The notes beneath the pieces are model-generated. The model was not told the origin of the DNA, did no database searches, and was given only the letters and a program-made list of their open reading frames with translations. From a virus, in the IMG/VR virus record IMGVR_UViG_3300027797_000001, positions 1 to 64,000 of that record: a DNA stretch of 64,000 nucleotides, one strand, 5' to 3'. Below are positions 35,195-64,000 of this stretch, in pieces. Each line of letters opens with the position of its first letter. Within the stretch, counting starts at the first letter, position 1. The position numbers and the translations under genes are program-made.

Positions 35195-35713
35195 ATGGAA
35201 ACAAAATCTAGACTTTTAAAAAGAAATCCTGAGCCTACTAGAACATTGAGTAGACCACAGGTAACAGTAACTCAACCTAAATCAGAACCTTCAAAACCAC
35301 AACCAACTCCTGACACTGGGGTGGGTGGTAGCTCATTAGATAACATGGTATCTTCTTGTGCTAGTGAATTAATGAATGCAAGAACAAGTTTTCATAAACT
35401 TCATTTAAAAGTAACAGGAGAAGGATCTTATGCGGCACATAAAGCATTAAATGAATTATATGATGCATTACCTGATCATGCAGACACTCTTGTAGAAGGA
35501 TATCAAGGAGCGGCAGAGAAAATTCTTTCATACAAAGAAGTGTCACCAAGAACTCTTGATACTGTAGCAGATGGTGTAAATTATCTTAGAGATATTTATG
35601 CAATGATAAATAAACTACAAGGTATGCTACCTTATTCTGAAATTGTAAACAACTTAGATTTAGTAAAAGATTCAATTAATTCTACTAAGTATAAATTACT
35701 TTTCCTAAAATAA
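35195..35713 (+). CDS. ferritin/Dps-like protein (DUF5856-like)
   Basis: H.LHL....SYAAHKALNELYD......D.LVE.YQG, KYKL.FLK. Confidence 0.8.
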   Translation: METKSRLLKRNPEPTRTLSRPQVTVTQPKSEPSKPQPTPDTGVGGSSLDNMVSSCASELMNARTSFHKLHLKVTGEGSYAAHKALNELYDALPDHADTLVEGYQGAAEKILSYKEVSPRTLDTVADGVNYLRDIYAMINKLQGMLPYSEIVNNLDLVKDSINSTKYKLLFLK

Positions 35714-48100: not shown

Positions 48101-50653
48101 CAAAATAATACTACAGGTATTTACAAAAGATACACAATTAATAATTTACAAAGAGGAGATACTGCAGTCATAAGAACTTTATCTGGTCCATATTTTAATC
48201 CGGCAAATCCAAATGGTACAAGTACAGGACCATATTTTATTACGGGTGCTAATAGAGATGTTTCACTAGTAACAATGTCTGGTTTAAATGGAAACACAAG
48301 TATTAATAATAACGTTACAATTAACACTTTAAATAATCAAACTCCAAATTGGACAGATGTTGACCAACCATTTAGTTTACCAATTGCCAGTCATTATGCA
48401 GCATTAAAGTATAGAATAAGAAATCAATATGGACAATTAGAAAGTATTAAACAAATTCAAATTACTCCATGTGAGCAAAAACTTTCAGATTATTCTATTG
48501 TGACAGCAGGTAATGTTTTTTGTCCAGGTAATCAAAGTGTTCTTACTGGAATTGCAAGAACTAATATTTTCTTTGGCGGGGATGTATTTATAAATAGATA
48601 CACAGAAAAGAATACTATGTTATTCTTTTATAATTGGTTATATGGTCAACCAGATGGTTTTGAGTTTAATTATTATTTATACTCAATGATTCCAAAATCT
48701 AGATTCTGGGCTAATACTCTCGAGTATGAAGCTCAAAATATGGCAATCTCAAACTGGAATGCATCAATCACTAGTGTTACAGGGGTATTCCCTACTGCAT
48801 TTTATAAATTAGATAATACTAATTATAATTTTAATAATGATTCAGTATCTAATTATCCAGGTTTTTGGAGAGCAAAAGAATCTTATTTTTATTTAGCTAA
48901 TTCTGGAGTAAGAGATTTCTTTGTAGAAAGTGAAGTACTTGTAGATTTTAGAATTTCTGGAGACCTTGAATTTGAAAAACATTATGACCCATACAGATAT
49001 ACAGATTTATACTCTATGTTTAATATGGACCCTCAAGTTATTACAAGAGGTAACATATGGAGATATGATTATTCTTTTAGCATAACTAAATTATACAATC
49101 AATATTTTTCATCAGGTAATTTACAAAGTAGATACTATGATCCATTTGTTGCTCAGTTATGTTATACATATCTTCCAGATAGAATTATATATTCATTACC
49201 GCAGCAAGAAGCAGCATTTAAAGATAGTTGGTTTATATACTTAGTGAATAACTATAAGGATTTTATATCTCAAGTTTCTGGAGTTAAGTCAATTAATAAG
49301 AGTGGTATATTCATTACATTTAAAAATGATAGTCCAACAATGTACCAGGGTGTTGATACATTACAAACAGATTTAGGTACTAAGATTACTATAGGTGACG
49401 GAGGTTTGTTTAGTCAACCTGGACAGTTTGCATCTAATGCAGATAAGCCATATGAGTATGGATCTTCACAAGATAAGTTTTCAATTATAGGTACACCTGC
49501 AGGTATTTATTATATCTCACAAAATCAAGGTAAGATATTTTTATATTCTGGAAATTTAAAAGAGATTTCTCAAGCAGGTATGAAGTGGTGGTTTAATTAC
49601 TTTTTACCTTATAAACTTACAGAAGATTTTCCTGACTATCCTTGGCAAGATAATCCTGTAGCAGGTATCGGGTGCCAATCTACATATGATAACCAAAACT
49701 CTATAGTATATTTTTCTAAAAAAGATTATCAATTAAAACCTGAGTTTAAAGATAAAGTAAACTATATTCCTTTGATAACTTATGGTAAACGAAAAGGACA
49801 AGGTGACTACTTTACTCATGTTGATTATCCAGGATCTCATTTTTTATTGGGTGATGAAACTTTATTTTTACCAGCATCTTGGACTATTAGTTTTGACCCT
49901 AAGAATCAGTTCTTTATTTCATTCCATGATTGGCATCCTGATTTAGCAATACCTACTAAGAAAACATTCTTAACAACTAAGTTTGCTGGAATGTGGAAGC
50001 ATAATGATTTATGTGATAACTTCTGTAATTACTATGGATCTAATTACCCATTTGAAATTGAGTTGCCTGTAAATACTGGTCAAACAGTAACAACTTTAAA
50101 ATCAATTGAGTATATGCTTGAATCATATAGAAGAAAGAATAATTGTTATGATCAATTCCATGTATTAGACTTTAACTTTGATAGAGCTATTATATTTAAT
50201 TCAGAACAAGTTTCCGGATATTTAAATTTAAACTTATTTCCTAAAAACAATATTACATTAAGTTTGGACTACCCAAACCTAAATGCAAACAATAATTCAT
50301 TTGATGTATTATTTTCAAAAGAAGAAAATAAATATAGAATAAATCAATTCTGGGATATTACAAAAGATAGAGGTGAATTCCCTATAGGATCAAATTATCC
50401 TCCTACTGGACCAGTAATTCCAGGAAGTACAATTTTATTAGGTAACTATGATCAAGAAGCTATTTGGAGTACTGAGCCAAACGGATATATTAAAACACTA
50501 AATCCTATTAATCTTAATTACGCTAAACCTGAAATGCAAAGAAAAAAGTTTAGACATTACTTAAACTTTATTACATTTATTAAAGATATCTCAGGTGACA
50601 CAAATATGTTATTGAAAATAACTAATACTAAAAATCAAATTTCTCCAAGATAA
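45143..50653 (+). CDS. tail muzzle/stabilisation protein (P22 gp10-like)
   Basis: 1836 aa; F.KGL.KD..P, YRDEVYAFFI, IRHHKFP, FGGD.FI.RY, WTISF......ISFHDW.P. Confidence 0.85.
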   Translation: MAKQSGENSAQLISNSFTKGLNKDSDPTYISEGMWTHARNASNNTWEGDVGTISNESSNYLCATAGATMPSSGQYLAPNKYIIGAIQLYSDRWIIYTAAHNQIGVPILSEIGLLIEDRCIYMPIVQDTCLGFDKRYLITGSAREKEDCTWQVYWADGLNPDRFLNIGDPQTWPDPSVYTTFGQYGTVNQNTYLSATGNTLQWPGVTWTQICCASTTCCQTAPGVWPTNIPNCPPDNACITCTDTKDLDCNALRLARLMETPCLNLELGVSGGTLLNGTYFAVIAYSIKGQRVTDYFSPSNTQPIWYPSDSQGSLTLNLEVDSDNFDEFILVMVQNVNQGTVAKQIGIYSTRTTRIELDRIKEDLITVPIEQLPILNPVYETSDQITEANNYLLRIGPRSKFDFNYQPLANLIRAKWVSVEYPADYYIKGGNKGSYYRDEVYAFFIRWVYDTGDKSSSYHIPGRPPGNYIYQPPNGGPLQIIPETTDGINDINTLDDSDRIFEMYNTATVQPIPATLNTTINDGGVVIGYGDMGYWESTERYPDDKPEIWNSSSHCWTGPLGNSPIIVNGSQWYPNDLCAQQIRHHKFPDNSLVDSNGNPVGLHYRPNPGINTQELKIRIMGVTFEDIILPVDNDGNLIPNIVGFEILRGSREGSRTILAKGMINNFRSYALPEYPLGLSGTSIQQGLYANYPFNTITPVQAVNIPGGPYSDPYVKSNLFQQVPQDIVSIHSPDLMFSTPYLSATELKIYGELRGNSQQFFKYPDNHPRHKLLSDVVPITAFVAGVAEAIIAMIGKRTTNQPEISSYATNYSGSVFTVPGASTLVTAPLQTTALTAIGTAVTGWNGFISSYYTGTAILDALAPLLSLPTTYETTLNAFLTTVNTAANSARIPKLTIAGSIELPPHAYLPVGLRSLGALNVFSYYWSEGANVAIDAVYTFVKYEQYALQSIAHGFYPKWGQARINEAKRFKIDDSFYIRDNIQQMSAYQNNTTGIYKRYTINNLQRGDTAVIRTLSGPYFNPANPNGTSTGPYFITGANRDVSLVTMSGLNGNTSINNNVTINTLNNQTPNWTDVDQPFSLPIASHYAALKYRIRNQYGQLESIKQIQITPCEQKLSDYSIVTAGNVFCPGNQSVLTGIARTNIFFGGDVFINRYTEKNTMLFFYNWLYGQPDGFEFNYYLYSMIPKSRFWANTLEYEAQNMAISNWNASITSVTGVFPTAFYKLDNTNYNFNNDSVSNYPGFWRAKESYFYLANSGVRDFFVESEVLVDFRISGDLEFEKHYDPYRYTDLYSMFNMDPQVITRGNIWRYDYSFSITKLYNQYFSSGNLQSRYYDPFVAQLCYTYLPDRIIYSLPQQEAAFKDSWFIYLVNNYKDFISQVSGVKSINKSGIFITFKNDSPTMYQGVDTLQTDLGTKITIGDGGLFSQPGQFASNADKPYEYGSSQDKFSIIGTPAGIYYISQNQGKIFLYSGNLKEISQAGMKWWFNYFLPYKLTEDFPDYPWQDNPVAGIGCQSTYDNQNSIVYFSKKDYQLKPEFKDKVNYIPLITYGKRKGQGDYFTHVDYPGSHFLLGDETLFLPASWTISFDPKNQFFISFHDWHPDLAIPTKKTFLTTKFAGMWKHNDLCDNFCNYYGSNYPFEIELPVNTGQTVTTLKSIEYMLESYRRKNNCYDQFHVLDFNFDRAIIFNSEQVSGYLNLNLFPKNNITLSLDYPNLNANNNSFDVLFSKEENKYRINQFWDITKDRGEFPIGSNYPPTGPVIPGSTILLGNYDQEAIWSTEPNGYIKTLNPINLNYAKPEMQRKKFRHYLNFITFIKDISGDTNMLLKITNTKNQISPR

Positions 50654-53600
50654 TGTTTAATAAGAAGCTCCTTTCAAGTATAGATTTAGGGAAGTATAAA
50701 AAAAAGAATCCCTATAAGAAAGATATGATTTTAGATCCTATGGGTCAATGGAAACATCCTGGGAAAAATACTAGAATACCCTCTGACCGGATTACAATGA
50801 AAGGAGTTAATTATCCTGTCTTGGGTGTATCAAATACTGGACAAAAACAAATGATGCAACCCGGAAGAGAATATAATTTTCCTGGAGCAGATTATGTTGA
50901 TGAATATCCACAGATGAAAAACGGTGGTTTACCTAAAGCTCAAAAAGGTGCAGCTACATACCAAGATAGTTTAGATGTATATAATAATGCTTTAAAACTA
51001 AAAGCTTTTTATGATTCAAAAAAACAATTATATAATATATCTACTAGACCATGGTATGGTACAAGCAATTTAAAAAAGGAAGAAAAAGAAACATATGATT
51101 ATGATAAAAATCCGGCTAACAATCCGGATGTAAAAACTTGGACACCTCAACAAAAAAGAAATTTTCAAAAAACAAAAGATTTAATTAAAGCAAATAAAGA
51201 TCCAAACATTGCTTATATTACAGATCTAATAACAGGTGCTTTAGATCCAGATGCTCCTGCTTCAAGATATGATAATAGAATTAAACCTCAATCAGAAATA
51301 GCATATTCGCCTTATAAAGCTCAATATTCAAAAACAGAAGACTCACTTTATGACAAACTTCAGAAAAACTATGATGGTATGAGTAGTTATGGTGATCCAA
51401 GATTTCCTACCTTAACTCCAAGTAAAAAAGATCTTTTAGATTATGCTAAAAAACTTGGTTATAGTCAAAAAGATGCTATAAGTCTTTTATATAAACTTAA
51501 AAGAGAAAATCTTGCTATGGCAAACACACCTGGAGTTAATACTATCTTACCATATTATGATCCTCTTGCAGTAAAACCTGGGAAACTCCTTACAGATGAT
51601 GAAATAAGAATTAGAGTTAAGAAATATGGTACAACTGGTATTCCTCAAAATAGATTAGACAAACTTGGTTTAAATAGTTCAAACCCACCAAAAAGTTCAA
51701 ACCCACCGAAAAAAAGTACATCTTCTACAGTTACTAAATCACCATGTTCAAATCCAACAACTACTGTTATAAATAATGTACCAGATAAAATTCCTTTTGG
51801 AAAAAAGTTAGTTGGTACAGATGAAGAAACATTACCAGTAACTGGGAAAAAATGTGAGTATGTTAAAACTATAAATCCAATTTATGAGGATGTTACAATA
51901 GATCCTATTAAACCCCCAGCAATTGCATTAAGAGTAGACAATGGTATTTTACCACCATTGCAACAATCAACTTATGTTCCACAAGAACCTATTGAAGCTC
52001 CACAATATGCATTAGGCCCTTATACTGCTGATAGATTACGTTTATCAGTAACACCTGGAAAAACAAAAAAAGTAACAAAACGTGGAAGATTGTTTGATGG
52101 TAAAGGTCAAGGATATAAACATACAGAATATAAATCAACTAAAGATTTGGAGTTTGGAAAAAAAGAAGTTACTAGATTAATACCAAGAATTGTTCAGAAG
52201 ATTACTGGTTATGATCCAGAATACTTTGAAGGTTCTTATGATGAAGAAGGTAACTATATTCCTGGAGAATTAGACTTTGGTAATGAGGTTGGTGGTAGAA
52301 TGGAATTTAGAGGAGCTGCATCTTTACAAGATTTAATAAATCAACAGAAGTATGCAAAAGACTGGGAAGAGTATGAAAGAAAGATTGATGAGAGAGAAGA
52401 ACAATCAAAGAAAAAACAAGAAGAGGGTAGAGCATTTAAAAAAGGTGGAACAAAGAAAAGAATATATAACCCTAATGCAAAGTATTATGCGGATGGTGGA
52501 GAAAATTTACAAGAAGAATGTCCACCATATCACTATTGGAATGGAGAAACTTGTGTTCCAGTTAGTAGAGAGCTTGCTCCTCTTGATCCACAATACTTAT
52601 CAGAAAATCCAGATGTTGCAACAAACATGCAAATTGAACCAGAAGTAAGTGTTAGTCCATTAGGTTCGGATTTTTCCAAGGCAAAGTCATGGATTGATAA
52701 ATGGCATGATTCTCCAATGCATGATAAAATGCTTATGAAATCATTACAGGGTAATAAAAAACTTTTTAAAGAATATAAGGATAAAAGAAAAAAAAATATA
52801 CAAACTATTCCAGCACTAAATATTAGTTTAGATAAAAGTGATCCTTTATATAAAGAAATAAAAGATTATTATGGGTTTGCTCCATGGGGAGCATCGGATA
52901 GTAATACAGGTGCTGTTTCAATATATAATTCTCATCCTGGAAATAAACAAATGTTAATTCATGAGGTTACTCATTCTTCTGATAGACCAGATGATAAATT
53001 AGGTAGACTTATTCCACCTAATGACCAATTAACAATACAATATAGAATCCCATTAAATTGGAAATATAGTCAATATGGTAAAGATATGATGAAAGAATAT
53101 AAAGAAAAAGGGTGGCGGTTAGATGATGAATATATGGGTGAAGAAGAAATACCAAGAGATATATATGAACAACAACAATTTAATGATTGGAATAAATATT
53201 TATTAAGTGACCAAGGAACTGAGGTTAGAGCAAGATTAAGTGAGATAAGACAGGATGCACAAGAACAAAATATTTATGACCCTTTTAATAAAAAAATAAC
53301 AAGAAGGCAATTTAAAAATTTAAAAAATATAAAATATCCTGATTCATTAGATGACCTTAAAAAAACTTTTTCTGATAAAGATATAAAGTGGATGTTAAAT
53401 AACATTTCTAAAAACAATAATGAAACTGAAGATGCTATTCAATATGGTAAAAAAGGTGGGGCAAAGAAAAAATACACAAGTGATATAATTAATAGTACTA
53501 ATTATCTTTTTGCGGAACATCCTTTATTTAAAAAGAAGAAACAATCTAAGAAAAGAATATATAACCCTAATGCAAAGTATTATCAATTAGGTGGATTAAC

Positions 53601-56463
53601 ACGATTTGTACCACAAGCTGGTAGAATGTTTGCTTTACCACCTATTACTAATACAATTGCAAATACTGCACCAGGTATTTTAAATTCTATAAAGACTATA
53701 TCGCAAAAACTTCCTACTAATTTATTAGATGAAGGTGCAAGAGATTTATTACATTATCCTAGTTTTGATGTTACACTTGGAGAATCAAATTTAACAGGAG
53801 TTGATGCTGCAAAGTATTTGGGAGACTTTGGCTTTAAACCATATTCAGAAGGTTGGACAGCTCTAAGTGACATGAAAAATGCATTTGAAGGAAAACAATG
53901 GAATCCTAGTAAAGAAGATTATTATACTCTTGATGAAATTTATAATTTAATAAATAAGCAAACAAATTATTTAAATGATCTTGCTAAGTTTAATGAAACA
54001 AATCCTGATGAATTAGGTGAGTATGGAAATTTATTAAGATGGATGCAAAATGATTTTAGTAGAGATGAATTATTTTCATTGTTATTTCCAAATTCTAGTA
54101 GACCAAATTTTAAAGAAAAATTTTATCGCCCAGAACATATAAATTTATTAAAACAAACTACACCCAATCCTGAAACTGGTATAAATTTATATGATAATTT
54201 AATTAAAAATACCAATTTTGGAGATAAAGGTTTAGTAGATAAGTATACATTAAGAAGATCAATAACAGAACCTAATACTGAAATATTACCGGGATCTGAA
54301 GATCTAATGTTATATAGACAAAGATATGAACCCTACAGAGGTTTAGATGCTGGTAATTTAAGTGAACGTAAAGATGTAATAGAGTTTCTTAAAGATCATG
54401 ATGGCATTTTAGGTTTTGAATTTAAAGATCTTAATAATGAATATTCCAATAATTTAAATTATTGGAAAGAACAAATATTTGAAAAGTTTGATAATCGACA
54501 ATATAAAAAATTTCAAAAGAAGTTTAAAGAACAATCTAAACCTGGAACTAGCTCTAAACTTAAAGGATTAGATGCTTATAATCAAATAATTAATAGAACT
54601 GGTTCTAGAAATAAATACGGAGGAGAACTACCTAAAGGTAAATACGGATACTCTGTTGGTAATCTTATAAGAAAACAATTTGGTGGTTTAGGTAGAGATC
54701 AAAGTTTATCAGTTTCACCATATGATCTTGATACTTACATTGGAGCTTCTGGAAATCAAATATATAATCCAGGATATAGTCTTACATATAATAAGCCAAA
54801 CCTTTTTAAAAAATTAGATGTAGTTGGAACTCCTTTTCAAGTATCAATAGGAAGACCTTATAATACTGATCCAAATAGTTTAACTAATCAATCTTTAAAT
54901 TTTGGAACATCATATGACTATGAATATATGGATCCAGGAGTACAACAAGGTCCACAACAAGAAGCTATAAATAATGCAGCTGCACAATATTTAGGAAAGG
55001 ATGTTCAAGATTTAAACCAATCTGATTTAAATAAATTTTCAGCATTTAAATCATTAGGGGAAATTAAAAATGCTTATGCTCCAGGAAAACCAATTAATTT
55101 ATCTACAAAACTTTCATTTTTAGGTAAAGCATTTAGTGACCAACCTGTTAGAGGTTTTGGATCAATATCTGGTGGTTATAATCCTGAAGCAGGTTTTTGG
55201 GCAGGAGCTGATCTTGGAGGTTTTGGAGTAATCTCAAATAAAAAACCAAAAACATATTTTGATAGAGGTTTATCTAGAAAAGGAGATTGGGCGGTTATTC
55301 CTAGTCTTTCTTTATTCTCTCCAGCAATTAGACAAAAAGGAATTGCAAATCTAGAACAATCTGCAGAGTATAAACGCTTATTAGAAAAAGATATACAAGA
55401 GGGTACTGATTCAGCACAAAATTATTATGATAATCAATTAGATGATCAGGGTAAGTCAACAATGACATTTAATGCAAGACCGGAAATTAAAGCGCAACTT
55501 AAACCATTTAAAAAGTTTCCCGGAATCTTAGAAGGGGTAGTTGGAGCTAATATAGATTTTATAAGTGGTGGTAAGGATTCTATGGATAAAATTACAACTA
55601 ATATAAACCCATACGGCAAAATATCATATGCTGTTTCTATTCAAGATGAGTTAGATAGAATGAAACGTAAGATGAAAAATGTAGAATTTCCTGATAAAAA
55701 ACACTATGAAGATTACGTAGAAGAATATGAAAATCAAACTACAGAAGAAACTCCTACAGAAACTGATAATCAAATTAATCCACCGGAGGTTGAATTAAAT
55801 TTTGATGGTCAAGGAGTAGGAAAAGCAGACTGCCCTAAAGGCTATGAAAGACCATGTGAAAAATGCAGATGTCAAAAAATAAAAATGCCTCAAATGTATA
55901 CAGACAAAAGAGGTAAACAGTTATTTGGCAATGAGCCTATTAGATTTCAAGATGGTGGAGAACAGGATGCAATGAATGCTATGATGAAAGCAAGACTTGC
56001 TTATGCTAATATGTTTGGTAATCCCTCAGCACAAAGAATGATTAATCTTCCAGATCAACCTTATGAATTTGATAATGGGAATACAGGCACACACTACATG
56101 GCAAGTATGGATAACTATGCTGTACCTCAAATTCAAGATGAGAATGGAGTATTACAGATTGGAAACTATGGTCCAGAATCTACTGAGGCAATGAGATTTG
56201 ACTCAGATGAAGATGCTAATTATTTTGCAGAAAACTATAAAGATGTTTCACCAGGATTTATGGATCTAGAACTTGATGATAATGAGATAGAAGAATACAG
56301 AAAAGGTGGTTATATAATAGAAGATATTTCTGTGCCTTCACTAACTAGAATGCAGCCTGTTGGTAAATATCAAGATGGTGGAGAATATCAATTGGGTGAT
56401 GAAGTAGATGAAGCTACTATGAAACAATTAAAAAAATTAGGTTTTACATTTGAACAAATTTAG
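50653..56463 (+). CDS. giant modular cargo/ejection-type protein with a zincin (HEVTH) module
   Basis: 1936 aa; about 10 xxGG motifs separating unrelated segments; LIHEVTH...TEVRARL. Confidence 0.8.
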   Translation: MFNKKLLSSIDLGKYKKKNPYKKDMILDPMGQWKHPGKNTRIPSDRITMKGVNYPVLGVSNTGQKQMMQPGREYNFPGADYVDEYPQMKNGGLPKAQKGAATYQDSLDVYNNALKLKAFYDSKKQLYNISTRPWYGTSNLKKEEKETYDYDKNPANNPDVKTWTPQQKRNFQKTKDLIKANKDPNIAYITDLITGALDPDAPASRYDNRIKPQSEIAYSPYKAQYSKTEDSLYDKLQKNYDGMSSYGDPRFPTLTPSKKDLLDYAKKLGYSQKDAISLLYKLKRENLAMANTPGVNTILPYYDPLAVKPGKLLTDDEIRIRVKKYGTTGIPQNRLDKLGLNSSNPPKSSNPPKKSTSSTVTKSPCSNPTTTVINNVPDKIPFGKKLVGTDEETLPVTGKKCEYVKTINPIYEDVTIDPIKPPAIALRVDNGILPPLQQSTYVPQEPIEAPQYALGPYTADRLRLSVTPGKTKKVTKRGRLFDGKGQGYKHTEYKSTKDLEFGKKEVTRLIPRIVQKITGYDPEYFEGSYDEEGNYIPGELDFGNEVGGRMEFRGAASLQDLINQQKYAKDWEEYERKIDEREEQSKKKQEEGRAFKKGGTKKRIYNPNAKYYADGGENLQEECPPYHYWNGETCVPVSRELAPLDPQYLSENPDVATNMQIEPEVSVSPLGSDFSKAKSWIDKWHDSPMHDKMLMKSLQGNKKLFKEYKDKRKKNIQTIPALNISLDKSDPLYKEIKDYYGFAPWGASDSNTGAVSIYNSHPGNKQMLIHEVTHSSDRPDDKLGRLIPPNDQLTIQYRIPLNWKYSQYGKDMMKEYKEKGWRLDDEYMGEEEIPRDIYEQQQFNDWNKYLLSDQGTEVRARLSEIRQDAQEQNIYDPFNKKITRRQFKNLKNIKYPDSLDDLKKTFSDKDIKWMLNNISKNNNETEDAIQYGKKGGAKKKYTSDIINSTNYLFAEHPLFKKKKQSKKRIYNPNAKYYQLGGLTRFVPQAGRMFALPPITNTIANTAPGILNSIKTISQKLPTNLLDEGARDLLHYPSFDVTLGESNLTGVDAAKYLGDFGFKPYSEGWTALSDMKNAFEGKQWNPSKEDYYTLDEIYNLINKQTNYLNDLAKFNETNPDELGEYGNLLRWMQNDFSRDELFSLLFPNSSRPNFKEKFYRPEHINLLKQTTPNPETGINLYDNLIKNTNFGDKGLVDKYTLRRSITEPNTEILPGSEDLMLYRQRYEPYRGLDAGNLSERKDVIEFLKDHDGILGFEFKDLNNEYSNNLNYWKEQIFEKFDNRQYKKFQKKFKEQSKPGTSSKLKGLDAYNQIINRTGSRNKYGGELPKGKYGYSVGNLIRKQFGGLGRDQSLSVSPYDLDTYIGASGNQIYNPGYSLTYNKPNLFKKLDVVGTPFQVSIGRPYNTDPNSLTNQSLNFGTSYDYEYMDPGVQQGPQQEAINNAAAQYLGKDVQDLNQSDLNKFSAFKSLGEIKNAYAPGKPINLSTKLSFLGKAFSDQPVRGFGSISGGYNPEAGFWAGADLGGFGVISNKKPKTYFDRGLSRKGDWAVIPSLSLFSPAIRQKGIANLEQSAEYKRLLEKDIQEGTDSAQNYYDNQLDDQGKSTMTFNARPEIKAQLKPFKKFPGILEGVVGANIDFISGGKDSMDKITTNINPYGKISYAVSIQDELDRMKRKMKNVEFPDKKHYEDYVEEYENQTTEETPTETDNQINPPEVELNFDGQGVGKADCPKGYERPCEKCRCQKIKMPQMYTDKRGKQLFGNEPIRFQDGGEQDAMNAMMKARLAYANMFGNPSAQRMINLPDQPYEFDNGNTGTHYMASMDNYAVPQIQDENGVLQIGNYGPESTEAMRFDSDEDANYFAENYKDVSPGFMDLELDDNEIEEYRKGGYIIEDISVPSLTRMQPVGKYQDGGEYQLGDEVDEATMKQLKKLGFTFEQI
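52453..52488 (+). repeat. 36-bp perfect direct repeat copy 1 (KKRIYNPNAKYY)
   Basis: AAGAAAAGAATATATAACCCTAATGCAAAGTATTAT; copy 2 at 53548-53583. Confidence 0.9.
53548..53583 (+). repeat. 36-bp perfect direct repeat copy 2
   Basis: Identical to 52453-52488. Confidence 0.9.
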
Positions 56464-59400
56464 TGATGGCAAAGTATAGAATTACAAGTTTACCGCAGTC
56501 TTTACCTAAAGCACAAAAAGGATTATTTAATAAAAGAAATAAAATATCTGTTAGAAACGGTGAAGTTAAATTGTTTCCAAATTTATTTGGTGATAAAAAA
56601 AGAAACAATATAGATACTCAAGATCAATCAGATGATACACAATATAACTGGTCTGGCACAACTCCAGAATTAATGCAACCTGATCAAGAGTCTTTTGAAT
56701 TAAAACCTACATATGCACCAACACCAGAGTTTACTCAAGCAGATGTTAATTTAAGTTCTACTCTTAGTAAAATACAAGAGGAGAGAGACAGATTAGCTCA
56801 AGAAAAAGAAAACAAGGATTGGGAAGAGATGATGAAAAAAAGAGATGAGAAATTTAAAACTTCTAAAAAATATGATAAAATAGAACCTTTGCTTACAATT
56901 GATTCTGAAGGATATGCAGATGAGGATCTTGCTTATTTTCAAGAGGCTGGATATTTTCCAGTAAAAGATTCAAAAACAAATAAAATAAATTTATATCCAT
57001 CAAATGAAATAAATTCAAAAATTATTAATAATGGTTTAAGAACAGATGAGATTGTTAAAAAACTTGGAATAGGTGATGCTGAATCTGTGAAGTCTGCTTT
57101 TGGAGATTTAATGACTGCTGCAGATCAACAGTATTCGGCTACTGTTCAAAACAAATTATTACAAAAATCACTAGATGAAGGTATTAGTTTAGAAGACGCA
57201 GTTAAAAAATTATCTGGTAAACTTGGAACTGAAAAAGGTCTTCAAAAATATGTTGCGCCTACTACTGATTTAATAAATAATTATATTGATGAAATTAAAA
57301 AAAATGTAAACCAACCTGCGGAGAAAGAACTTCAGTCAATGTACTATGATAATAGAAATCCTAATCAAGGTTATTCTCCAAAGATTGATTATAATTCATA
57401 TGATCCAGGGTTAAAATATAACACGGATTATTATAATACTACAAATAATTGGGGACAATTTCTTAAAGACTATTCTGATTATAATAAAGAGTATGATAAA
57501 GAATATGCAGATTCATTTTATAATAAACAAAATCAAACTGCTGATAAATTAAATTTACCTGTGTCAGATAGAACAGGAAATTTAAAAAATCAACAAGATG
57601 TGATTAATCAAAATATATCATTAACTAAACAAGTTGGAGATGTTTCTACAGAAGCAGGAAATAAAACAATAAATAAGAAGTATATAGAACAACTACAGGC
57701 AGACATGGCAAGAGTTTCTGATCCTTTAGTTAAATATGAACTAAGTAAAAAACTTGATGCAGTAAAAAATAATCCAGAAGCTTTTTCTAAACTCTTAAAA
57801 GGTTTTGAATCTGGAGAAGTCTTTACAAAAGAAGATGAAGATAATATCAATGCTTTAACTTTTAGTATCCTTCAAAAAGAATCAAATCCAGATACTATAA
57901 AAGCTGGTGTAGATAGACCTAAACTTACAACATCAGATAAAGTATTTGATGTATTAACTAATCCATTTGACGCATTTAAATATTCAAACCAAGGAGGTTT
58001 AGATAATATGTGGACTAGCGGTATGGGTTATAATGAAAGAAAACTTTTAGAAAGAGCTAATCCAGAATTAAATCTTGGAACACAAGATAATCTAGTTGGT
58101 AATGCTTTGAATACATGGAATCCAATGAGATTTGCAAGAGATGTAGATTCTGATCTAGATAGAGAAGACTATGCTTCTGCTGGTTTAGAGGCACTTGAGT
58201 TTGCTACTCCTGCAATGTTTTCAAAAGCTGCAAGAGCTGGTAGATTAGCTAGAGACGCAAGTAAGTTTTTTCCAACTGGTTCAATCACACCAGGATTAAA
58301 AGGATTTACCGGATCTGCTTTTGAATCATTAAATCCCTATTTTGCATATGAGGCAATAAGACCAGGGGGAGAATTAAATAGATCATACGATTTACTTAAA
58401 GAAGGAAATATTAAAGAAGGACTTCAAGAAGGTGCTTTTGGTCTATTAAATCTTTTACCTGCAGCTGGTACTTTTAAAAGTTTAAAAAGTGCTGAAAACA
58501 TAGGTGGTGCTAAACCATTTGTATCACAACAATTAAGTTTTAAGAAAGGAGGAGAGTTACCTACTTATCAAGGGCCAATAAGATCAATTGTAAAAAGTAT
58601 TCCTTCTAAACTTGGTAATTTAGCAATGAAGACTGGAATAAAAACATTGCAACTTCCCGGAGTTAAACCTTTTTTTAGAAGTAACTATAATCCAATTAGT
58701 TATCCAATTAGTTATCCAATAAAACTTTTAGGTGAAAAAATAGCTAGACAATCTCTTAGTCCAAGTAGAAATAAAGAACAAGTTATTGCTGCACTTACTA
58801 AAAAAGCAGCCCCAGAAGAAAACCTTTATTTTGGTAATGTAACTGCTGTGGATCCAGAATATGGTTATGGTAAAAGAGATTTAATTGCTAATTATTTTAG
58901 AGGTATAGATACTGGTTTTAAACCAATTGACTATGATATTTATTCAGATCCTGGTTTAAAAAAATATATAGATAGATATGGACCTTTAAAAACATATGAA
59001 CTTAATTCATCTGTTAAACATGGTCAACCTTTAGACATTGCTGATTTTACTAGGCTGCTAAATATAGATGATACTAAATTAAGTAATTTTGATCAAGATC
59101 TTTATGAAGATGAAGTTTTTCAAAATATGCCTGGTTTAGAAGATTATTACTATAATGAGTATATGAATAATCTTCCTGGAACTAGTACTCCTAGTCCATA
59201 TAAAGCACAAAGACAATACTATAAAAAAATGTTACATCAATATTTTGATAAACGCGGTATAGAAGTTCTCCCTCTAGTTGTTGATCCAGATTTGAATACA
59301 TTAGGTAATGTTAAAAATTATTTAAGCCGTAATCCCGCTATATCATATGATGATCTTGCTGGTCATATGGGTTATTTAAAAAGATTGCCAAACAAAGAAG

Positions 59401-59654
59401 ATTTTGAATTTACTACAAGAGATATATGGAAATTTACACCTGATGACTATCATTCTAAATGGGCAGGATCTTCAAATAAAGATGAACTGTTTAAACAATT
59501 ACAAGTTGAGGCTATGGATGCATTTGGAAAACCATTTGTTTTAACCCAAACAAATCCAATGAAATTTAAAAACGGTGGTTCAATGGAATTAGAATTAACA
59601 CCAAAACAAATTAAAGAGTATATAAAAGCTGGATATATCATTGAAGATATCTAA
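56463..59654 (+). CDS. large putative cargo/ejection protein
   Basis: 1063 aa; AQKG, FKKGG, FKNGG; C-terminal MELELT..QIKEY.KAGYIIEDI. Confidence 0.8.
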   Translation: MMAKYRITSLPQSLPKAQKGLFNKRNKISVRNGEVKLFPNLFGDKKRNNIDTQDQSDDTQYNWSGTTPELMQPDQESFELKPTYAPTPEFTQADVNLSSTLSKIQEERDRLAQEKENKDWEEMMKKRDEKFKTSKKYDKIEPLLTIDSEGYADEDLAYFQEAGYFPVKDSKTNKINLYPSNEINSKIINNGLRTDEIVKKLGIGDAESVKSAFGDLMTAADQQYSATVQNKLLQKSLDEGISLEDAVKKLSGKLGTEKGLQKYVAPTTDLINNYIDEIKKNVNQPAEKELQSMYYDNRNPNQGYSPKIDYNSYDPGLKYNTDYYNTTNNWGQFLKDYSDYNKEYDKEYADSFYNKQNQTADKLNLPVSDRTGNLKNQQDVINQNISLTKQVGDVSTEAGNKTINKKYIEQLQADMARVSDPLVKYELSKKLDAVKNNPEAFSKLLKGFESGEVFTKEDEDNINALTFSILQKESNPDTIKAGVDRPKLTTSDKVFDVLTNPFDAFKYSNQGGLDNMWTSGMGYNERKLLERANPELNLGTQDNLVGNALNTWNPMRFARDVDSDLDREDYASAGLEALEFATPAMFSKAARAGRLARDASKFFPTGSITPGLKGFTGSAFESLNPYFAYEAIRPGGELNRSYDLLKEGNIKEGLQEGAFGLLNLLPAAGTFKSLKSAENIGGAKPFVSQQLSFKKGGELPTYQGPIRSIVKSIPSKLGNLAMKTGIKTLQLPGVKPFFRSNYNPISYPISYPIKLLGEKIARQSLSPSRNKEQVIAALTKKAAPEENLYFGNVTAVDPEYGYGKRDLIANYFRGIDTGFKPIDYDIYSDPGLKKYIDRYGPLKTYELNSSVKHGQPLDIADFTRLLNIDDTKLSNFDQDLYEDEVFQNMPGLEDYYYNEYMNNLPGTSTPSPYKAQRQYYKKMLHQYFDKRGIEVLPLVVDPDLNTLGNVKNYLSRNPAISYDDLAGHMGYLKRLPNKEDFEFTTRDIWKFTPDDYHSKWAGSSNKDELFKQLQVEAMDAFGKPFVLTQTNPMKFKNGGSMELELTPKQIKEYIKAGYIIEDI

Positions 59655-59712
59655 ACCTTTGAAGTTTACTCATTAAATTTATTTTTAGTATATTTAATAT
59701 ATAACGTGCACA

Positions 59713-62700
59713 ATGACAAAAAAGAAAGTAAGAATATACAAGGCTCCAGATGGTAAAGGTCAGTATATAAATAAAACTGCAAAGTTCTTAAAGAAAGCTG
59801 CATTTGGTGGTCAATCAGATACTCCGCAAGAGGATATGTATTCTCAATTGGCACAAGCTTCATATATGTCTATTAAAAAGGGACAAAGTCCAAAGGCAGT
59901 ATATGACTTTTTAATTAATAATAAAATTAGTAAAGATGTTGCTGAGAAAATTGTGACAAGTGTTATACAGTTCATGATGTCAAAAGGTGAATTAGAACAA
60001 GAAGACCTTGACGAAGATCAGCAAAAAGAGCAACAGATGCAAGCTCAAATGCAACAACAGCAACAAGAAAAAGAACAAATGGCTTCTGAACAAGATGCTG
60101 CTAATGAAGCACAGATGGACATGTACAACAAACAAAGTATGGATGTTGCTAATGACATGTCTCAGTATGATCAAGAAGCAGAAGCTAACTTAGATACAGA
60201 AGATATATTAGGTTTTCAGGCTGGTGGTCAAATGACTACAGATGATTTATTGTCAGAACTTAATAAGCATGATAATGATATTAATTTCCAAGATTTAGAA
60301 TCATTAATTCAGTCTACTCCTGGAACACAAAGTGCATCATTCCCAGGGATTGAAGAATACTACTTACCTTATATTCCACTTTATAGTGAAAGCAATGAGA
60401 TTCCAATTTATAATCCAATACAAAGTGATAATCAATATAAGTTTGGGGGAAAAACAAAAAAGAAATTTATAGGATCAGTACTAGAACTTTTAAAGAAAGA
60501 AGAGGGTGGCGAGGATGAAGTAATTAATAATACTACAGCTACTCCTAAAGATGATCTTACAAATACTGTTAAGAGAAAACAAGATTCATTTGTATCAGCA
60601 TTAAGTGACGAAGCTAAAAAAATAAAAATAGAAGAGTATTATAATCAAATTAAAAATACAAATGATCCAGATACTCAAGAAATTTTAGGTGGAGGCCCTG
60701 ATCAAATGAAAAGGGGTGGCAGAACTAAAAGAAAAGATAATAGACTGCTTAGAAAATTAAATAGAATACTAGGACAAAATGATATGTATGGTATGCAAGG
60801 GTATATGCCATATAATTATTTTAATAAGCGTAGTGGAGATTTTGCAAATCAAAGATTTGATACTTTAGACTATCCATCAATTGCAGAATACTATAAAGCA
60901 TTGTTAGAGAAAATGCCAGTGTTAAATCAAATGTCAAGAGTATTGCCTCAAGTAGATGTTTATGACACAGGTTTATTTGGTAGACCAAAGAAGTATAAGA
61001 TTTCATATAACATTCAACCAGTAGATAAATCTGCAGAAAGACAAGCTATGGAAGCTGTTATTAAGAACAATACTGGATCATCTTTCCCAATGTTATATCC
61101 AAATCCTGGTTATGATGGTTCTCCTGCTCCAGCTGGTACAATGTTAGATGTAGTTAATGACCGCTCTATAGCTCCTATACAATATGATGCATCTGTAAAA
61201 CCTATGGTTCCTACAGGTCCAATGGCTTTTCAGTTTGGAGGTTCAGCTATTTTTGATCCTTCTGCAAGTACATTAGCAAAATATATCTATGGTGGCAATG
61301 ATTTTCCAGAAGATTCTAAGAATGTAAATGATCCATACTTTTCAGATACTACACCATATCCACAAATGCAAAATGGCGGAGATCCCACTGAATATACACA
61401 TTATACTCATGGAGCTAATGATGTATTTCATGATAACATGAATATGATAAATCAAGCTAAGGATGGTTTAGAAACTGGTGGTGATGAATATGCTCTTGAT
61501 TATATAAGACAACTTGCTGGTCAAATGAAGCAGTATAATAAAGCTTCTAGAAAATTAGGAAGGCAGGCAAGAAGAATGACTGGAAATACCATGTTAGATT
61601 ATTTAATTCCTATCAATAGACCTTTTGAGTATGCAGGAAGTTATGGTCAACAAAGGGGAATGCCATTTGATTATGAGACCGGTGAAGAATACACCGGTGA
61701 AATAGACCCATCTAATTTTGTAGCAAGGGATAATTATAAAATAGGAATGTTTGGTAAACCTAAAAAATTTATAGATTATTATTCAGTAGGTAATGAAGGA
61801 CTTAATGTTCCAGATGATTTTTCAGAAATTGAACCATATACAAAGTCAAAACAAAAAGCTCCTGCTCAACAAGATGTTTATAATGAACAAGAAGAGGAAG
61901 ACATTTCTTTTCGTCAAGCAAGAAGGAATGATGGCGTAAGTAATATTAGAGGTGCTTTTGCAAGAATGTTTCCTGAAAGTTCAGGTAGAGAAGATAGAGA
62001 AAGAATGTTTCCTATGCTCAGAGCTCAAGACTCAGATAGAAGTGAAGACAGAAGATTGTTTCCAATGATGAGGGCGGATAAAAAACAAGAAGGTGGAGAA
62101 CCAAACCAGGATGATTATTATAATGATTTATTTTCTAAATTAAACTATAGTAATACCTATAGCAATTATTACAATGAATTAGAATTTAGAAAAGGTGGAA
62201 GAGTATTAAGAAAAGCATTTGCGGGTTTAGAAAATACACCTGTTTCATATAATGACAATCCAGTTACTTCACAAAATATTATTAGTCAAAATACTCCAGA
62301 TCCTATGGAGCAAATGACAGCATTTCAAGGACCTATTATAGAAGATAGTGACTTTAATTTTCCAACTGATCTTCCTGGACCAGTTTCTACAACTAAACCT
62401 TATGTTGAACCTGCAGAAGATGATTGGTCAGGTCCTCAAATGAGTAATCCAGACATAGATTATCCTGCTGGTCCTGAGAAACTTAAAAATAAATTAGTAG
62501 GTGTTAAGAGAAAAAGAAAAGATATGTTTAATATAGATCCAGAAGCAGGTGTTAATGCATTTAATGCTGGAGCTAGAGGAGTTCTTGGTGGTATTGATAG
62601 AATGAGGAATAAGAAACAAGAAGCAAACATGTATGCTAAAAACTTTGACCCTACTAAAATTTATGGACAAAAATCAAGAATAGATAAAGGTGACTATGAT

Positions 62701-63069
62701 GTAAATAAAGGATTGTATAGAGTAAATCAAATGGGTGCTGATAGATTAGGCCGCTCTAAAAAGTATGGAGGTTATATGCAACCAGGAGGATCAGTAGATC
62801 AACAAATGTATTACCCTGAAGACAATATGGTTTATCCTCCAGGAGATAGTCAGTATCCAATGATTCCTTTGAATCAAGATATTATGGATATGATGTATAA
62901 CCAATACTATTCTGATCCTAACTTTGCACCTTATATGGAAGACCCATATATGGAAGAAACTCCAGAGCAAATGGACTACAGAATGGTAAAAGAAGGTGGA
63001 GAAACCTATATGTCAGATGAACAAATAAATGCCTTCTTAGCTGAAGGAGGAGAAATTGAATATTTATAA
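59713..63069 (+). CDS. large low-complexity cargo protein with many xxGG motifs
   Basis: 1118 aa; at least 12 xxGG motifs; Gln/Met/acidic segments. Confidence 0.8.
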   Translation: MTKKKVRIYKAPDGKGQYINKTAKFLKKAAFGGQSDTPQEDMYSQLAQASYMSIKKGQSPKAVYDFLINNKISKDVAEKIVTSVIQFMMSKGELEQEDLDEDQQKEQQMQAQMQQQQQEKEQMASEQDAANEAQMDMYNKQSMDVANDMSQYDQEAEANLDTEDILGFQAGGQMTTDDLLSELNKHDNDINFQDLESLIQSTPGTQSASFPGIEEYYLPYIPLYSESNEIPIYNPIQSDNQYKFGGKTKKKFIGSVLELLKKEEGGEDEVINNTTATPKDDLTNTVKRKQDSFVSALSDEAKKIKIEEYYNQIKNTNDPDTQEILGGGPDQMKRGGRTKRKDNRLLRKLNRILGQNDMYGMQGYMPYNYFNKRSGDFANQRFDTLDYPSIAEYYKALLEKMPVLNQMSRVLPQVDVYDTGLFGRPKKYKISYNIQPVDKSAERQAMEAVIKNNTGSSFPMLYPNPGYDGSPAPAGTMLDVVNDRSIAPIQYDASVKPMVPTGPMAFQFGGSAIFDPSASTLAKYIYGGNDFPEDSKNVNDPYFSDTTPYPQMQNGGDPTEYTHYTHGANDVFHDNMNMINQAKDGLETGGDEYALDYIRQLAGQMKQYNKASRKLGRQARRMTGNTMLDYLIPINRPFEYAGSYGQQRGMPFDYETGEEYTGEIDPSNFVARDNYKIGMFGKPKKFIDYYSVGNEGLNVPDDFSEIEPYTKSKQKAPAQQDVYNEQEEEDISFRQARRNDGVSNIRGAFARMFPESSGREDRERMFPMLRAQDSDRSEDRRLFPMMRADKKQEGGEPNQDDYYNDLFSKLNYSNTYSNYYNELEFRKGGRVLRKAFAGLENTPVSYNDNPVTSQNIISQNTPDPMEQMTAFQGPIIEDSDFNFPTDLPGPVSTTKPYVEPAEDDWSGPQMSNPDIDYPAGPEKLKNKLVGVKRKRKDMFNIDPEAGVNAFNAGARGVLGGIDRMRNKKQEANMYAKNFDPTKIYGQKSRIDKGDYDVNKGLYRVNQMGADRLGRSKKYGGYMQPGGSVDQQMYYPEDNMVYPPGDSQYPMIPLNQDIMDMMYNQYYSDPNFAPYMEDPYMEETPEQMDYRMVKEGGETYMSDEQINAFLAEGGEIEYL

Positions 63070-63078
63070 TTTTGTATT

Positions 63079-64000
63079 ATGTATCATAGAGTAAGAATTA
63101 AAAAATTGCCACAGGCAAGAACAGGTTACCAAGTACAAGGTTCACTAGCTAATGATGTACCAGCTTTTGGTGGAGCAGATTATAATGCATATATAGGAAA
63201 ACCAAATCTTAGACAAAGTAAATATATTACAGCTGTACCAAGAGATGAAGCTAACTTAGAAGCAGAAGGTGGAGAAACTGTATATGGTGACATCAATGGA
63301 GATGGTTTTCCAGAACACAAAGTTATAAAAGGACCAAGACACTCAGCAGGTGGTGTACCATTATCATTACCAGATGATACATTTATTTTTAGTGATACTA
63401 AATCAATGAAGATAAATGATCCTAATGTTTTACAAATGTTTGGTAAAGCACCTAAGAAAGGAAAAGGTCAACATGGCTTTACTCCAGCAGATCTTGCTAA
63501 GCAATATGATATAGATAAGTATAGAAAAATATTACAAGATCCTGACTCAGATCATATTGCTAGAAAAACTGCTGAACTAATGATCCGTAACTATAATATG
63601 AAGTTAGGAGCTTTAGCATTAGCACAAGAAGCTAAAAAAGGATTTCCTCAAGGTATACCAGTAGTAGCTAAACCTTACATGGAAGCTATGGGTCTTACAG
63701 AAGATAAACTTCTACCAGCTGAATATAGAACATTGTCAGCTCCACAAGAAGAAGAAGAAATGCCAGAAGATCAAATGCAAGATCCTTCACAACAATATGC
63801 TTCTGATGATTATGATGTAGAGAATACACCATATGATACAGAAGAAGAAATGGGAATGCAACCTGGTATGGGATTAGATCAAGCAGCCATGGAAGGGCAA
63901 ATGCAAATGCCACCTATGGCTATGTATGGTATGGAGATGGGAGGTTATGATATGCCTTTTGCTGCATATGGTATGCCTATGGGAGCTAATTCTAGTAACT
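63079..64000 (+). CDS. cargo protein with EAEGGE/GPxHxxGG domain (partial, runs off window; not in ORF track)
   Basis: MYHRVRIKKLPQARTG...ANLEAEGGETV...IKGPRHSAGGVPL.LP..TFIFSD; appears open to window end. Confidence 0.85.
   Translation, partial: MYHRVRIKKLPQARTGYQVQGSLANDVPAFGGADYNAYIGKPNLRQSKYITAVPRDEANLEAEGGETVYGDINGDGFPEHKVIKGPRHSAGGVPLSLPDDTFIFSDTKSMKINDPNVLQMFGKAPKKGKGQHGFTPADLAKQYDIDKYRKILQDPDSDHIARKTAELMIRNYNMKLGALALAQEAKKGFPQGIPVVAKPYMEAMGLTEDKLLPAEYRTLSAPQEEEEMPEDQMQDPSQQYASDDYDVENTPYDTEEEMGMQPGMGLDQAAMEGQMQMPPMAMYGMEMGGYDMPFAAYGMPMGANSSN

Follow-up and report, generated by a model that had tools for sequence, protein, structure and literature searches.

The window described here is the first 64 kb (64,000 nucleotides) of a complete virus record of 114,922 bp with direct terminal repeats (IMG/VR record IMGVR_UViG_3300027797_000001), and our subject is the block of genes, P2 to P5, that follows its muzzle protein gene, together with two short elements at the ends of the encoded proteins. 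One is an acidic tail module of ~25 residues, which ends P2, P3 and P4; the other is a head peptide, beginning with a basic strand, which opens P3, P4 and P5. These elements exist, are specific to the block, are under selection at the protein level, and follow a rule by which all proteins but the first carry a head peptide and all but the last a tail module. An earlier note on this DNA had proposed that each acidic tail captures the basic N-terminal strand of the next protein, chaining the proteins head to tail for ordered packaging or ejection, and the seven peptides it quoted are all present in the frames it gave. The genes and their end elements are listed below, followed by the neighbouring genes.

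50653..56463, + strand: P2, 1936 residues, first protein of the putative cargo block; two tail modules, no basic head peptide
56260..56328, + strand: internal copy of the tail module in P2, MDLELDDNEIEEYRKGGYIIEDI, sharing 64% identity with that of P3
56329..56385, + strand: linker after the internal module of P2, SVPSLTRMQPVGKYQDGGE, a junction peptide of the form S-(V/I)-P-x-L-(T/N)-(K/Q)-(A/M)-x-x-G(G)
56386..56460, + strand: C-terminal tail module of P2, type c2, YQLGDEVDEATMKQLKKLGFTFEQI, found by profile hidden Markov model (HMM)
56466..59654, + strand: P3, 1062 residues; ends conserved, body modular and swapped among relatives
56466..56522, + strand: head peptide of P3, MAKYRITSLPQSLPKAQKG, a basic strand and then the junction linker
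59574..59651, + strand: C-terminal tail module of P3, type c3, GGSMELELTPKQIKEYIKAGYIIEDI, found by profile HMM
59713..63069, + strand: P4, 1118 residues; well conserved only in its first and last 25 residues
59713..59799, + strand: head peptide of P4, MTKKKVRIYKAPDGKGQYINKTAKFLKKA, found by pattern search
62995..63066, + strand: C-terminal tail module of P4, type c4, GGETYMSDEQINAFLAEGGEIEYL, found by profile HMM
63079..64000 in the window (to genome position 66006), + strand: P5, 975 residues, last of the block; no tail module
63079..63141, + strand: head peptide of P5, MYHRVRIKKLPQARTGYQVQG, part of a conserved extension of 41 residues
45143..50653, + strand: muzzle protein gene, 1836 residues (PF25731 crAss_MUZ, E 4.5e-18), at which the array starts
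genome 66066-69308, + strand: P6, 1080 residues, next after P5
genome 69309-94692, + strand: P7, P8 and P9, of 2571, 3508 and 2391 residues

The tail module is laid out as a GG, a short strand, a capped helix, a G and a second strand, and follows the pattern (aromatic)-x-x-G-G, 1-6 residues, a short alternating stretch, and then (S/T/D)-x-x-(E/Q)-(I/L/M)-x-x-(Y/F/L)-x-x-x-G-(Y/G/F)-x-(I/V/F)-E-x-(I/L), with S/T-x-x-E as the helix cap; of these residues, the G and the E alone are the same in every module type. Three types can be told apart, namely c2 (Y-E-L-G-D-E-V-D-E-A-T-M..L.K-L-G-Y-T-F-E), c3 (L-(S/T)-x-x-E-I-x-x-Y-x-x-x-G-Y-I-(I/V)-E) and c4 (V-x-M-T-x-E-E-L-x-x-F-L-A-x-G-G-x-V-E-Y-L). A strand-helix-strand fold, as the earlier note had described the acidic tail, is suggested by this residue pattern, and of its parts the helix alone appears in a model: in an AlphaFold2 (AF2) prediction of full-length P3 with 18 homologues, the mean predicted local distance difference test score (pLDDT) is 43 and the termini are unmodelled save for a helix at residues 1046-1054, itself at pLDDT ~52, so that the two strands are read from the residues and the helix from a low-confidence model. 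The same prediction shows no cis pairing of the P3 ends and, at this low confidence, does not speak against such pairing either.

Run on 401 open reading frames (ORFs) of at least 60 residues, drawn from this genome and ten related loci, a profile HMM of the module matches four places in the genome, inside P2 and at the ends of P2, P3 and P4, with per-domain E values of 5e-6 to 4e-11; the next match in the genome has an E of ~0.1. One of the segments that had been quoted as C-terminal, MDLELDDNEIEEYRKGGYIIEDI, is the internal copy and lies 44 residues before the end of P2, the others being C-terminal as claimed. An internal module is present in every P2 orthologue of the first ten loci, at varying positions. 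Among 1.84 billion cluster representatives, 690 proteins match the profile at E <= 0.001 and 189 still do so at 1e-10; the best 149 module-bearing representatives hold 2-4 copies each, one of them at the very C-terminus in 134/149. Of the internal modules (199 in these 149), most of those inspected run into the junction linker, and the linker after the internal module of P2 resembles the P3 and P5 head peptides downstream of their basic strand. The module has no counterpart in the genome of Bacteroides phage crAss001, and its sequence gave chance-level matches only against PDB chains. A Pfam match of SutA-RBD to the P4 tail (E 0.0056) fell below the cut-off and is treated as chance. The motif aromatic/Met-x-x-G-G is itself enriched in the block, with 22 occurrences in P2-P5 against 4 expected from shuffles, compared with 0 observed and 3.3 expected in P6-P9, and its aromatic form shows no clear enrichment in gp45 of crAss001 (3 observed, 1.3 expected). 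A further short motif, L-P-K-A-Q-x-G, recurs inside P2 (residue 93) and P5 (residue 349).

The N-termini of P3, P4 and P5 share the form M-x-K-(V/Y)-R-I-x-x-(L/A)-P, and in the P3 head 18 homologues agree without exception at residues 1, 3-8, 10 and 11. The pattern [KR][VYI][RK]I..[LIVA]P was found solely at residues 3-5 of P3, P4, P5 and their orthologues, and across 80 further loci it is N-terminal in 139/140 occurrences. The peptide quoted for the gene at 56463 is there, and the start is better placed at the ATG at 56466, because the database homologue P0001 begins MAKYRIT. Within the P3 head (…SLPQSLPKAQKG) and the P5 head (…KLPQARTG) lies the same linker as follows internal modules, in the head peptides of the form L-P-x-A-x-x-G and preceded by the basic stretch K-(V/Y)-R-I-x-(K/S). 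None of the 199 internal modules has the basic strand behind it; what comes next is the linker only. Confinement of the strand to N-termini, and its absence behind internal modules, is what would be expected if it replaced a covalent link that had been lost.

Relatives were gathered as ten viral contigs fetched via P3, 80 via the P5 head region and 80 via the P6 N-terminus, and in all three sets the order of genes and of end types is identical. Both elements are kept in ~150 related viral contigs while the bodies between them vary ~2-fold in length. P2 orthologues of the first ten loci range from 952 to 1955 residues behind a common N-terminus, MYNKK.L, and 19 P3 homologues of 42-100% identity all retain a MAKYRIT-S-x-P-Q head and a K-x-G-Y-I-(I/V)-E tail, sharing these ends even where the region before the C-terminus is another domain. 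Among 55 P4 orthologues, whose lengths run from 676 to 1927 residues, conservation in 25-residue windows is 0.66 in the first window, 0.72 in the last and <=0.55 in between. Nowhere are P3 and P4 better conserved than at their ends; the earlier note had named a lack of conservation at the termini as grounds for giving up its proposal, and here the opposite holds. Entropy at the three codon positions is 0.58/0.24/0.88 in the P4 tail module and 0.19/0.11/0.74 in the P5 head peptide, and since third positions are the most variable, selection acts on the protein; a DNA-level signal was considered and dropped on the same grounds. In a few relatives a frameshift interrupts a cargo gene and leaves the module on a separate small ORF (P3 in L007, L008 and L030; P4 in L020 and L038; for example L007:12567-12914, of 115 residues), which may be sequencing error or a real split.

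The two elements are also distributed by rule. For 45 distinct arrays that run the whole way from muzzle to P6, the numbers of proteins, modules and head peptides are (4,4,3) in 5, (3,3,2) in 21 and (3,2,2) in 13, with (3,1,1) and (3,2,1) in 2 each, and (2,2,2) and (3,1,2) in 1 each, the last owing to a divergent module that escapes the profile. These counts imply that, in almost every array, the first protein alone is without a head peptide and the last alone without a module. Types are paired too: c2 is always followed by a P3-type head, MAK(Y/F)(R/K)I, at a spacing of -1 or 2 nt; c3 is always followed by a P4-type head, across 57-58 nt that hold a conserved palindrome-like element; and in all loci that have both, c4 is followed after 3-11 nt by a P5-type head. 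In the many relatives without P3, neither c2 nor the P3 head is present, and the module at the end of P2 is of c3 type. Three lineages depart from the scheme, each altered on both sides of a junction. L071-73 are without the last strand of c4 and without the basic strand of P5; in L039, L045 and L102, P2 has no module at all and the P4 head is degenerate (MPLYKA); and in L103 and L113, one protein of 1769-1862 residues, with a P4 head and a P5-like end, replaces P4 and P5, and neither c4 nor the P5 head is found.

By its gene content, the source is a crAss-like phage with a crAss-type virion module. This module reads large terminase and portal (by PHROGs), Crassvirus capsid protein, tail ring proteins 2 and 1, and muzzle, with Pfam matches for the capsid and tail ring proteins at PF23898 (2.6e-29), PF25702 (2.4e-20) and PF24228 (2.1e-9). 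A match to Crass_capsid marks the capsid gene, the genes for ring proteins 2 and 1 immediately precede that of the muzzle, and major capsid, tail ring proteins 1 and 2 and muzzle stand in the order by which Crassvirales-like genomes are recognised. The crAss001 muzzle gene is followed by those for cargo proteins C1 (gp45) and C2 (gp46) and for the polymerase-associated proteins, and the particle contains every one of them (PMC10172136). Since the present array directly follows the ring and muzzle genes, in the slot of gp45 and gp46, we read P2-P5 as cargo that is most likely carried inside the virion. Their sequences gave no Pfam or PHROG family match, and BLASTP among P2-P6, gp45 and gp46 detected no paralogy outside the tail module. 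No segment with a Kyte-Doolittle mean >1.5 was found in P2-P6. For P3 and P4, single-protein locus searches gave no match and comparison with a GenBank phage collection (blastn, tblastn) essentially none, and a search of the ESM Atlas with P4 produced no lead.

A link to C1 comes from P5, whose first 200 residues are its best-conserved part, column identity reaching 89% over the first 70. In an AF2 model built with 51 sequences, the 41-residue extension that bears the head peptide is at pLDDT 32-53 and appears unpacked against the domain that follows, which is modelled at ~90:

63211..63708, + strand: folded domain of P5, residues 45-210, from AF2 and structural comparison

When this domain is aligned with chain M of 7qog (residues 432-552 of crAss001 gp45), VIA-align returns a Z of 4.9 and a root-mean-square deviation of 4.7 over 99/126 residues at 20% identity; none of the entries tied with it in the structural search gives a longer alignment or a higher identity. 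Foldseek against BFVD places proteins of Cellulophaga, Flavobacterium and uncultured crAss phages at the top (5e-5 to 7e-3), and five proteins named 'Cargo protein 1 compact domain' are among the top BFVD matches, with E values of 0.07-0.65. Foldseek of the domain against the PDB gave no match, and its sequence only chance-level matches to PDB chains; PF25725 (crAss_CARG1) matches neither P5 nor any frame of the genome; and hhalign, hmmsearch and BLASTP of P5 against gp45 were not significant. A search for homologues of the gp45 compact domain returned only sequences of 98-100% identity, which are useless for a profile. We therefore regard residues 45-210 of P5 as probably, on the strength of modelled structure and short of being established, a divergent form of the compact, portal-binding domain of cargo protein 1. 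Further along, P5 residues 649-690 hold eight cysteines as CxC, CxC, CxC and CxxC within 42 residues, before a second conserved region (~700-875); this cluster may be a metal-binding knot.

How does the block compare with gp45 as a whole? In crAss001, gp45 is one chain of 842 residues, whose N-terminal part enters the tail by way of the portal (Bayfield et al. 2023, PMC10172136). Like the present proteins, gp45 (PF25725; 7QOG chain M) has the slot directly after the muzzle; it is virion-internal, as P2-P5 most likely are; residues 45-210 of P5 probably resemble its portal-bound compact domain in predicted fold; and its N-terminus is likewise a basic peptide (MAKKKIKRRGKMPP). Unlike gp45, which fills its slot with one chain, the array here has three or four proteins in the same place, and the probable compact domain, whose counterpart is at residue 425 of gp45, lies 45 residues from the N-terminus of P5, behind the 41-residue extension.

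Our preferred reading of these data, held tentatively, is that a split, C1-like cargo is coupled head to tail without covalent bonds. In it we infer the fold of the module, a direct contact, portal anchoring and a role in ordered ejection. P2-P5 would be virion cargo (ejection) proteins filling the slot of C1, with exchangeable bodies and with ends that act as fixed connectors. The head peptide of protein n+1 would dock on the tail module of protein n in donor-strand-like fashion, and docking of the basic strand would restore the continuity that is covalent within P2, holding the separate proteins in the order P2, P3, P4, P5 as the fused modules are held inside P2. P5 could be the anchor on the portal, via the C1-like compact domain just behind its head peptide, with the others extending toward the tail and muzzle, and gene order would be physical order and exit order alike. 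The distribution rules, the pairing of types and the joint absences all fit such a chain, as does the P5 model, in which the conserved head peptide is left free of its own domain. A more ambitious version seems to us rather doubtful: here a single C1 would have been split into 3-4 genes and rejoined by the type-specific pairs c2/n3, c3/n4 and c4/n5 into a train running from muzzle to portal, in which gene order is both physical and exit order, and, together with terminal-cysteine pairs in the polymerase block downstream, the whole ejected proteome would form one ordered chain.

The proposed coupling can be set beside several known systems. In chaperone-usher pili, the N-terminal extension strand of subunit n+1 completes the sheet of subunit n, and an ordered chain results. 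The same logic of strand donation would apply here, with clear differences: the acceptor in pili is an incomplete Ig fold of ~150 residues, whereas here it is a 25-residue module into which strand insertion would be supposed, and there is no homology, nor any chaperone or usher. The internal proteins of phage T4, in turn, bear a capsid-targeting sequence (CTS) that is cut off by the prohead protease gp21. As here, a short N-terminal peptide is common to several proteins that are packed in the head and injected, but no matching C-terminal module is found on a neighbouring protein in T4. As for a prohead protease that might carry out a CTS-type removal, S78 has no match in the genome and none of ten head-module proteins matches a protease PHROG, the T4 gp21 family not having been searched.

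A third comparison, and a solved precedent for linking ejection proteins end to end, is the pre-ejectosome of cyanopodophage A4, where a C-terminal helix of gp27 inserts into gp26 and is tied to it by a Cys1715-Cys5 disulfide (PMC12002296). There, as is proposed here, the C-terminus of one ejection protein is joined to the N-terminal region of another; the A4 link differs in being covalent and solved by cryo-electron microscopy, and the phage lineage is unrelated. Facing cysteines of the A4 type do not occur at the P2-P5 junctions: P3, P4 and P6 are cysteine-free, and there is no cysteine close to either end of P2 or P5. As P3 and P4 lack cysteine, any link at their junctions must be non-covalent. 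Facing terminal cysteines are present instead in P7-P9, at residues 2569/2571 of P7, 3 and 3506/3508 of P8, and 3 of P9 (which starts MVC). In these proteins the cysteines stand solely at the facing ends, and this is a second end-to-end pattern.

Several points weigh against the coupling. The joint losses count for little as independent events, because a single deletion or replacement can span a junction of 3-60 nt, and the constant pairing of types is partly trivial, because all the loci have inherited a common gene order. In several lineages the P4 head is kept behind an upstream protein that ends without a module, the module being internal only, so a strictly C-terminal socket is not required; and P2 usually has one module more than there are head peptides, which gives the module a role without a head. 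Covariation between partners does not exceed that between non-partners: distance-matrix correlations are 0.38 for c3 with the P4 head and 0.34 for c4 with the P5 head, against 0.49-0.56 for non-partners, in a mirror-tree test that is confounded by linkage. The relation of P5 to gp45, moreover, is one of modelled structure only, with a middling Z. Prediction of a complex between the last 70 residues of P4 and the first 70 of P5 scored 0.14 against a mark of 0.32, which is evidence neither way.

Could the two elements do their work without ever touching? They may be independent address tags, each docking to the portal wing or channel, the rings, the muzzle, a scaffold or DNA, or serving as a signal for packaging or ejection, and we rate this possibility as nearly as good as the coupling. 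The CTS of T4 and the short, ring-bound helices of gp45 are examples of such tags. Short segments of the crAss001 cargo bind the portal, rings R1 and R2 and the muzzle (PMC10172136). Independent docking would accommodate modules that are internal as well as terminal and that outnumber the head peptides, a P4 head that persists without a terminal module upstream, the lack of extra covariation between partners, and a P5 head peptide that adjoins a probable portal-binding domain. It leaves unexplained why the first protein alone is without a head and the last alone without a module, why the basic strand sits exactly where fused forms have a bare linker after the module, and why module and cognate head are jointly absent in three lineages.

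Two further explanations would do without any docking. The ends could be linker or recombination cassettes, that is, inert spacers between exchangeable domains, conserved as points of homologous crossover for co-infecting phages and for keeping domains apart. The bodies are indeed mosaic, homologues with common termini differ before the C-terminus, proteins hold as many as 4 modules, at positions that vary, and aromatic-x-x-GG is enriched in the block (22 against 4 expected). Yet selection acts on the protein with third positions varying freely, the residues specific to c2, c3 and c4 and to each of the three heads are kept clade-wide, and neither a strictly N-terminal basic strand nor the free 41-residue extension of P5 is explained by a spacer's role; we think this explanation unlikely. 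More improbable still, in our view, is that the modules mark processing sites, with giant polyproteins cut at or near them (after ...EDI or at the flanking GG) to give the same ends as separate proteins. Natural C-termini do coincide with the point at which internal copies run into the S-V-P linker, and GG motifs flank the modules. Against this, the protease families C39 (PF03412), C48 Ulp1-like (PF02902), C5 adenain (PF00770) and S78 HK97-type have no match in the complete genome, a result that leaves room for distant or novel proteases, and the ten head-module proteins include no protease PHROG. Cleavage of the T4 type follows the rule (L/I)-x-E and adenain the rule (M/L/I)-x-G-G, and the residues round the invariant E fit neither; nor would cleavage need a conserved module of 25 residues to be kept on the product. 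Two particular forms of processing were dropped, the T4-type (L/I)-x-E because the residue at cleavage position P3 (not the protein) is not conserved, and a sortase-like LPXTG because the motif is N-terminal.

Podovirus-like phages have to pack several large proteins and let them out in sequence by way of a narrow tail, and a clade-wide code of modules and peptides at every cargo gene junction offers a concrete handle on how they do so. If the ends are couplers, this would explain how effector-like bodies can be swapped freely without upsetting assembly. Whatever their role, the end elements can be used as search profiles for the cargo proteins of uncultured crAss-like phages, whose bodies vary beyond recognition. 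We found no published description of the elements in the full-text literature, where cargo proteins are discussed only in the crAss001 structure paper and a review.

The junction between P3 and P4 has a nucleotide element of its own:

59652..59712, + strand: P3-P4 spacer, 57-58 nt, with a palindrome-like TAAAC.T....AAGTTTA that includes the stop codon, followed by AAATT..TTTAGTATATT

A second copy follows P5 at genome 66005-66065 (L012:3005-3065), and these are the only two sites in the genome; >40 related loci preserve both the length of the spacer and its motifs at the corresponding junctions. The element is probably a terminator/promoter or a regulator-binding cassette that divides the cargo array into transcription units. 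Between P5 and P6, some relatives carry ORFs of ~211-216 residues that begin MATY(I/L)Q, the first six residues of P6, and continue ..GIYKITN. in GIY-YIG-like fashion (L021:8822-9457, L022:10651-, L028, L048, L061, L082, L111, L118, L146 and L159). To judge from these motifs, each looks like a homing endonuclease inserted at the start codon of P6.

Elsewhere in the record, a protein of 172 residues encoded mid-virion module (window 35195-35713) matches the PHROG 'starvation-inducible transcriptional regulator' (Dps-like DNA-binding) with an E of 1.8e-21. Near the C-terminus of P9 (genome 87517-94692), residues 2061-2103 form a LysM domain (Pfam E 9e-9), which suggests that this protein, once ejected, may bind peptidoglycan.

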